64,000 bases of DNA from a virus (Duplodnaviria > Heunggongvirae > Uroviricota > Caudoviricetes): the IMG/VR virus record IMGVR_UViG_2939127364_000001, one strand, 5' to 3'. A model generated the notes under the pieces. The model worked only from the letters and a program-made list of their open reading frames with translations. It was not told the DNA's origin and searched no databases. The translations under genes and the position numbers were made by a program. Below, piece by piece: positions 7,817-7,915 of this stretch (the first letter of the stretch is position 1; every line of letters starts with the position of its first letter).

Positions 7817-7844
7817 GAAAAAAAGCCCGTACTTTCGTACGAGC
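7817..7844 (-). terminator. Rho-independent terminator downstream of tRNA-Ser fragment
   Basis: Minus-strand hairpin GCTCGTAC-GAAA-GTACGGGC followed by TTTTTTT. Confidence 0.6.
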
Positions 7845-7857
7845 TCTTCTTTAAAGA

Positions 7858-7915
7858 TGGCGGTGAGGGGGGGGATTCGAACCCCCGATACGTTGCCGTA
7901 TACACACTTTCCAGG
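7858..7915 (-). pseudogene. 3' portion (~57 nt) of tRNA-Ser(GGA), serW/serX-like, truncated at IS1 end
   Basis: Minus strand reads CCTGGAAAGTGTGTATACGGCAACGTATCGGGGGTTCGAATCCCC...TCACCGCCA, matching the recalled anticodon-to-3' end of E. coli tRNA-Ser; the 5' half is absent; 2-bp junction ambiguity with IS1. Confidence 0.7.

Follow-up and report, generated by a model that had tools for sequence, protein, structure and literature searches.

The 58 nucleotides at positions 7858-7915 of the window (the whole 64,000-nucleotide stretch of DNA that we analysed) are what remains, on the minus strand, of a tRNA-Ser(GGA) gene truncated by IS1. We put at about 85% the probability that they are the scar of a chromosomal tRNA-Ser gene at the serW position, which was cut and then moved, together with the adjoining fimbrial operon, as an IS1-bounded module. 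The window constitutes the beginning of an SSU5-type phage-plasmid, with repA at 1-1056 and a plasmid backbone 98% identical to Escherichia phage Cyrano, and essentially the same plasmid was found in several E. coli from pigs and poultry.

Alignment to serW and serX of E. coli K-12, whose tRNAs are identical to each other, placed the remnant at nucleotides 32-88 of the 88-nt gene. Its reverse complement (CCTGGAAAGTGTGTATACGGCAACGTATCGGGGGTTCGAATCCCCCCCCTCACCGCCA) is 58 nt long, relative to 57 canonical nucleotides, and matched K-12 serW/serX at 57 of 57 canonical positions; the sole difference was the C-run of the T-stem and acceptor, which has eight C (the G-run at 7867-7874 of the plus strand) instead of seven. 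Retained are the anticodon loop with GGA, the long variable arm, the T-arm and the 3' acceptor with CCA. The breakpoint lies within the 5' strand of the anticodon stem, and the 5' 31 nt have IS1 in their place. The GG at 7914-7915 is common to the tRNA (...TTTCCAGG) and to the right inverted repeat (IRR) of IS1 (GGTAATGAC...), and the IS1 IRR end directly past the remnant reads GGTAATGACTCCAACTTATTGATAG.... A first-pass annotation, made from the letters alone, had described a truncated serW/serX-type tRNA-Ser of about 57 nt that ends at the IS1 inverted repeat with 2 bp of ambiguity and carries one C more than the E. coli gene, and these three claims were borne out: a full alignment to serW/serX was obtained over the 57 nt on which that description depended. 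A chance match was ruled out, as an exact 40-mer would be expected about 1e-19 times in the window.

ARAGORN called four tRNAs elsewhere in the window and none at 7858-7915, and Rfam likewise returned no tRNA at 7858-7915, either at the gathering threshold or at E<=10; a permissive Rfam threshold yielded only T-arm-sized chance or partial matches to the remnant. Both programs were silent, as expected, because the sequence is a fragment. Judged as a functional tRNA-Ser(GGA) gene, the stretch has identity to serW/serX over the whole retained part, including the GGA anticodon and the variable arm, and a native terminator downstream, as seen from flank homology and a predicted hairpin, and it lacks a complete 88-nt cloverleaf. 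It is a non-functional scar with no activity as a tRNA, and an ordinary IS1-truncated gene remnant.

The homology to K-12 carried on for about 55 nt beyond the CCA, through a hairpin (GAGCTCGTACGAAAGTACGGGC) followed by T7. The remnant thus shares with K-12 serW and serX both nucleotides 32-88 and the terminator hairpin after the CCA, and is unlike them in lacking the 5' 31 nt and any promoter, in its eight C, in its location on a phage-plasmid and in abutting IS1. This tRNA-Ser terminator occupies 7818-7851 on the minus strand, with the core stem at 7825-7844 and the U-run at 7818-7824, and includes a 15-bp hairpin within a 176-nt stretch of z = -5.3 (ViennaRNA). A simple terminator scan of the minus strand did not call the tRNA hairpin, probably because the stem takes up part of the U tract, and the minus-strand call was made from homology and the ViennaRNA fold. 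With a flank homologous to K-12 serX/serW and matching that of E. coli Rb-50, and a hairpin that folds, the earlier description of a native terminator beside the tRNA stood. The terminator stem agrees with that of K-12 serX (GTACGGGC) and disagrees with that of K-12 serW (GTGCGAGC); assignment to serX by the stem alone was rejected, since native E. coli loci with this flank sit at the serW position. The fimbrial operon has its own terminator on the plus strand, a hairpin and T-run at 7765-7791 that the native chromosomal loci conserve and that both the terminator scan and folding detected.

The left boundary of the module is a complete IS1 of 768 bp at 1831-2598 (plus strand), delimited by its terminal inverted repeats and self-BLAST, with its left inverted repeat (IRL, GGTGATGCTGCC) outward and its IRR towards the operon; an IS1A transposase is annotated at this site in the near-identical plasmid pYLPD4a. 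The operon upstream region at 2599-2815 (plus strand) derives from the chromosomal cas6f-yehD intergenic region, as established by alignment to Rb-50, Escherichia sp. E1V33, E. whittamii and three module copies, and is 93 bp shorter in the window than in the other module copies. It is followed on the plus strand by a yehD-like chaperone-usher fimbrial operon of four genes (2816-7737), recognized from the open reading frames, Pfam and the RefSeq annotation of a near-identical plasmid. These genes encode the major subunit (2816-3364), the chaperone (3421-4098), the usher (4226-6712) and a tip/adhesin-like fimbrial protein of 337-339 aa whose gene ends at 7737, and their Pfam domains are PapD_N/C, Usher, PapC_N/C and Fimbrial. 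On the right, terminal repeats and self-BLAST identified an IS1 IRR-end stub of 56-57 bp at 7914-7969/70 (minus strand), the remainder of this IS1 being missing. The stub is inverted relative to the left IS1, so that both IRR ends point inward and bracket the operon. The right IS1 is truncated by a 1,331-bp IS3-family element at 7970-9300 (plus strand), annotated with an IS3 family transposase and matched over the same span in other plasmids, which we take to be IS2; the plasmid backbone follows directly. Relatives carry a full IS1 at the position of the stub: both bracketing copies are complete in pBS15R-A_1, relative to a complete left copy and a right stub in the window. The sister plasmid pBL12EC-1, with the same backbone, has a solo IS1 at the identical site.

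The uncut arrangement was found in place in one of 5,426 complete E. coli genomes, that of Rb-50, where the order is clpS-clpA, a CRISPR array, cas1f-cas3f-csy1-3-cas6f, the yehD operon, tRNA-Ser, a second CRISPR array and infA-aat-cydCD. Rb-50 is 96.7% identical to window 4224-7915, its stretch from the fimbrial stop codon to the tRNA equals that of the window save for a single-base difference in an A-run, and its flank upstream of the tRNA is of the serW type. In a metagenome contig (L017), 96.8% identical to the window over 619 bp, the fimbrial gene lies 120 bp from an intact K-12-type tRNA, which is followed by a serW-type flank and type I-F CRISPR repeats. A scan of one genome per species added E. 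whittamii and E1V33, in which the operon (94-96% nucleotide identity) follows the type I-F cas genes (cas-F) and precedes an intact tRNA-Ser(GGA). On the native locus, the captured segment has its left edge immediately past the cas6f terminator. The remnant therefore marks the right edge of a captured chromosomal segment, as the first-pass annotation had supposed, and inspection of donor-type chromosomes, which it had recommended, located the same operon directly downstream of the tRNA in Rb-50, L017, E. whittamii and E1V33. Our use of 'serW' is a positional call that appears justified by three of these four native loci: the block of cas-F, fimbrial operon and tRNA-Ser(GGA) lies at serX, on the ghrA-ycdX side, in E. 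whittamii, and the same cas-F/fimbria block lies at serW, on the infA-aat side, in E1V33, Rb-50 and L017. Possibly, the type I-F CRISPR-Cas locus has moved from one of these identical tRNA genes to the other.

The interval from clpA to infA is a known variable locus that houses type I-F cas genes, with serW between these genes and the second array (PMC3903273, PMC12736100). The native loci of Rb-50, E1V33 and L017 share the frame of this clpA-infA 'CRISPR-III' locus and differ from its published form (PMC3903273, PMC12736100) in having the fimbrial operon between cas6f and serW; fimbriae are mentioned in neither paper. The tRNA stub is thus an exact provenance tag, which traces the operon to the clpA-serW-infA region beside type I-F CRISPR-Cas genes.

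No direct donor (>99% identical) was present among the sampled genomes, as identity between the native loci and the window peaked at 96.8% for the usher, adhesin and tRNA and fell to about 85% for yehD and the chaperone gene. The operon is a mosaic: relative to Rb-50, E1V33 and E. whittamii, identity is about 85% in its yehD/chaperone part (2595-4115) and 94-97% in its usher/adhesin part (4224-7915), which suggests that the major subunit and chaperone alleles may have been replaced. Three of the four native loci, those of Rb-50, E1V33 and E. whittamii, have a compensated C49:G65 pair in the T-stem that is absent from the window. We also considered the motif AAAGATGG after the CCA as a donor signature and rejected it, since 14 of 15 metagenome contigs with the motif have other DNA downstream, mostly repeats of the serX type.

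In order to follow the junction through E. coli, we compared a query consisting of the window sequence and the missing 5' part of the tRNA (the reconstructed uncut junction) with the 5,426 complete genomes. The fimbria-tRNA stretch occurred in 33 of them: 31 copies end at the IS1 junction, one ends somewhat earlier, and one, that of Rb-50, enters an intact, annotated tRNA-Ser. The 32 cut copies comprise 13 plasmid records and 19 chromosomes, and in the six genomes where the junction was read directly it was the same. Plasmid carriers were of the SSU5 type or the IncY/P1 type, and the chromosomal copies that we inspected belong to an IS-rich island that carries an integrase and adjoins the leuZ-cysT-glyW tRNA cluster or yecA. 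These E. coli chromosomal copies were rejected as donors, as all those inspected are IS1-bounded and located in the island beside leuZ or yecA. The same module thus resides in unrelated replicons (SSU5-type plasmids, IncY/P1-type plasmids and leuZ-side islands), as would a composite transposon, and the identical breakpoint in three kinds of replicon argues for a single capture followed by spread, from which the fimbria-tRNA/IS1 junction probably stems. This chaperone-usher operon is accordingly now found on two unrelated phage-plasmid families (SSU5-type and P1-type) and in a chromosomal island.

The length of the C-run varied among the cut copies, with eight C in SSU5-type copies, seven in P1-type copies and the MB30 chromosome, and six in two other chromosomal copies. 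The extra C is no donor signature, because copies of this same remnant have six, seven or eight, and the variation looks like homopolymer drift in a dead remnant. Five SSU5-type plasmid records were 100% identical to the window over the remnant, and direct reading of pYLPD4a showed the run of eight, which makes an isolated error in the window less likely. The MB30 chromosome, also read directly, has AG in place of the junction GG (TTTCCAAGTAATGAC), a point difference either in the IS1 end or in a tRNA base, and this AG is probably shared by four other chromosomes with matches that likewise stop at query position 414. In the P1-type plasmid pE189-1, the right IS1 is a 38-bp 'ends-only' remnant (10214-10251 of locus L003), in which 17 bp of IRR are fused to 21-22 bp of IRL, and RefSeq annotates the tRNA stub plus this IS1 remnant as an 81-nt tRNA-Ser. 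RefSeq labels on the stub in several genomes read 'tRNA-Ser' (81-127 nt) or 'tRNA-OTHER' (up to 143 nt) and extend into IS1. ARAGORN found no tRNA in the three loci that were scanned among those so labelled (L001-L003). These labels are annotation artefacts, for which, as a set, the IS1-cut stub accounts.

Two other origins for the tRNA homology were weighed against a cut gene. K-12 has three tandem units of 181 bp downstream of serX (4024-4566 of locus L005), in each of which a terminator and a REP-like tail accompany the final ~20 nt of the tRNA, and some are labelled 'RtT sRNA' by RefSeq. E. whittamii and E1V33 also have three such units, of 182 bp, which separate the fimbrial gene from the tRNA (about 11080-11690 of loci L006 and L007), and K-12 serW has none. 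Given these occurrences, and a terminator stem in the window of the serX/repeat type, the remnant might be one serX-downstream unit instead of a truncated gene. We regard this as extremely improbable, and the alignment refuted it: the tRNA homology of the units ends in ...GGGGATT followed by GACTCGCTTCG, whereas that of the window runs on for 57 nt, through the T-loop, variable arm and anticodon loop, and the last ~20 nt of the tRNA are not followed there by GACTCGCTTCGCTCGCC....

The remnant might also be the attL or attR repeat of an integrase-type island that brought the fimbrial operon into serW or serX. Both genes are real island sites, where OI-43/48 and SRL-PAI are bordered by the 14-bp repeat TGGCGGTGAGGGGG (PMC3064760); this core is present in the remnant, at 7858-7871, and the position of the cas-F/fimbria block differs between species, being serX in one and serW in the others. 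However, in the native loci the tRNA gene stands complete at this spot and has the downstream flank seen in the window, and the remnant ends at the IS1 IRR and not at the att core. Furthermore, the interval from clpA to infA in Rb-50 has no integrase, and thus no tyrosine integrase beside the tRNA; it also has no second copy of the tRNA 3' core, as TGGCGGTGAGG occurs once, at the tRNA itself, and hence no distal direct repeat of the tRNA 3' end; and 57 nt far exceed the 14-bp repeats. The reading as an att repeat is largely refuted and strikes us as very improbable: the tRNA is not an att remnant but a whole gene that was cut by IS1. Relative to OI-43/OI-48, SpLE1 and SRL-PAI (PMC3064760), the native block is on the same side of the same tRNA genes, and their 14-bp att core is in the remnant, but unlike them it shows no integrase, no flanking direct repeat and no sign of site-specific recombination. 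The first-pass suggestion of a tRNA-Ser-associated genomic island consequently held for position, there being variable DNA 3' of the tRNA gene (of serW in Rb-50, E1V33 and L017, and of serX in E. whittamii), and failed for mechanism, as the native block has neither an integrase nor an att-type direct repeat.

Islands with a P4-family integrase at serW and serX (OI-43/48, SpLE1, SRL-PAI) have the same 14-bp core as their crossover repeat. In the stub this core is flanked by native sequence, the T-arm on one side and the terminator on the other, and over about 110 bp the stub is homologous to both chromosomal genes at roughly 96-99%. From these matches it is conceivable, as a long shot, that a phage-plasmid with the stub could serve as a secondary attB for serW/serX islands or as a reversible integrator at serW/serX; no occupied copies were seen among those examined. 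If true, such a secondary attB could take up serW/serX islands and spread them by infection.

From the above results on sequence identity, junctions, native arrangement and distribution, we infer the following order of events for the cut and moved serW-position gene. The donor would have been an Escherichia with the order clpA, CRISPR, type I-F cas, yehD-like operon, serW, CRISPR and infA, in which the operon and the tRNA were convergent and 120 bp apart. One IS1 would have come to lie with its IRR end in the anticodon stem of serW, an insertion that was presumably tolerable because serX is an identical second copy, and another, in inverted orientation, just after the cas6f terminator. The segment between them, with the operon, both terminators and the tRNA stub, could then move as one module and would have reached P1-type and SSU5-type phage-plasmids and the integrase-bearing island beside the leuZ cluster, most moves probably occurring by recombination with, or cointegration at, resident IS1 copies. 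Later, in the lineage of this plasmid, the right IS1 would have been cut to a 57-bp stub beside the IS3-family element, 93 bp lost at the left junction, and a small MITE-like repeat acquired between the chaperone and usher genes.

The placing of the right-hand IS1 by direct insertion was preferred to an IS1-promoted adjacent deletion, in which IS1 first inserted further off on the CRISPR/infA side and a deletion then extended to nucleotide 31 of the tRNA. A similar event is visible at the left junction, where 93 bp beside the left IS1 are missing relative to all other copies. Moreover, none of the 5,426 complete E. coli genomes had the reciprocal junction, in which IS1 IRL would adjoin the first 31 nt of serW; 13 places reached a coverage of 80% or more and were rejected as this reciprocal scar, each being two separate pieces, an IS1 and an intact tRNA a few hundred bp away. 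The two routes leave indistinguishable products, because the outer flank of the donor was lost, but direct insertion takes fewer steps, and we judge a deletion unlikely, if far from negligible. For an insertion into serW, the tRNA stretch at issue for the 8-9-bp IS1 target duplication is ACTTTCCAG(G).

As to how the captured serW-position segment moved afterwards, the outer IS1 ends of pE189-1, pBS15R-A_1, ETEC1703 and 2018-02-2CC were inspected for a 9-bp target duplication, and none was seen; among these examined copies only pBS15R-A_1 has two complete IS1, the right IS1 of pE189-1 being the 38-bp remnant. The outer flanks are unlike each other in pBS15R-A_1 and pE189-1, the outer right end is deleted in the window, and the chromosomal copies are rearranged, with partial and duplicated IS1 pieces. 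The module thus showed no 8-9-bp outer target-site duplication of the kind left by an IS1 composite transposon, and this result, together with the solo IS1 at the same site in pBL12EC-1, makes recombination or cointegration likelier than clean composite transposition. In P1-like phage-plasmids the IS1 region has been described as a hot spot for cargo, and entry by recombination or cointegration at a resident IS1 has been noted for it (PMC9603915). Like the IS1-flanked cargo of those phage-plasmids, the module has inverted IS1 brackets and sits at a resident-IS1 site, and like IS1-bounded composites it has the same inner junctions in several replicon types. It is unlike the IS1 composites (PMC9603915) in that its cargo is a chaperone-usher operon and not a resistance gene, and it differs further in having no outer target duplication and, in the window, one IS1 that is a 57-bp stub. 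The module is a concrete case of IS1 moving chromosomal adhesin genes onto phage-plasmids.

Several other features were noted along the plasmid. The repeat between the chaperone stop codon and the usher start is an insert of about 105 bp at 4116-4223 that is confined to this plasmid lineage, with terminal inverted repeats GGAAG(A/G)TGCGAATAAGT, presumably IS5-like, and an apparent 4-bp duplication, TTAT. The element occurs in few genomes (31 of 5,426 E. coli) but in up to 31 copies in one of them, which is MITE-like, and an effect on usher translation is possible, since the insert takes the place of the bases immediately before the usher ATG. Six direct 21-bp repeats (TTTACTCACTACAGTGGATAG-like), accompanied by inverted copies of the motif, are located directly 3' of repA (1057-1177 and 1391-1660) and look like iterons of a putative plasmid origin. 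The phage-plasmid has a tRNA cluster of its own at 27016-27669, with Ser(tga), Thr(tgt), Tyr(gta) and Asn(gtt), of which Ser(tga) falls below the Rfam gathering score; in pYLPD4a only Ser, Thr and Asn are annotated in this cluster, packed more tightly. Finally, a 779-aa open reading frame at 10495-12834, annotated in relatives as a LAGLIDADG homing endonuclease, is adjoined by a small fragment of an IS3-family transposase at about 10167-10340.
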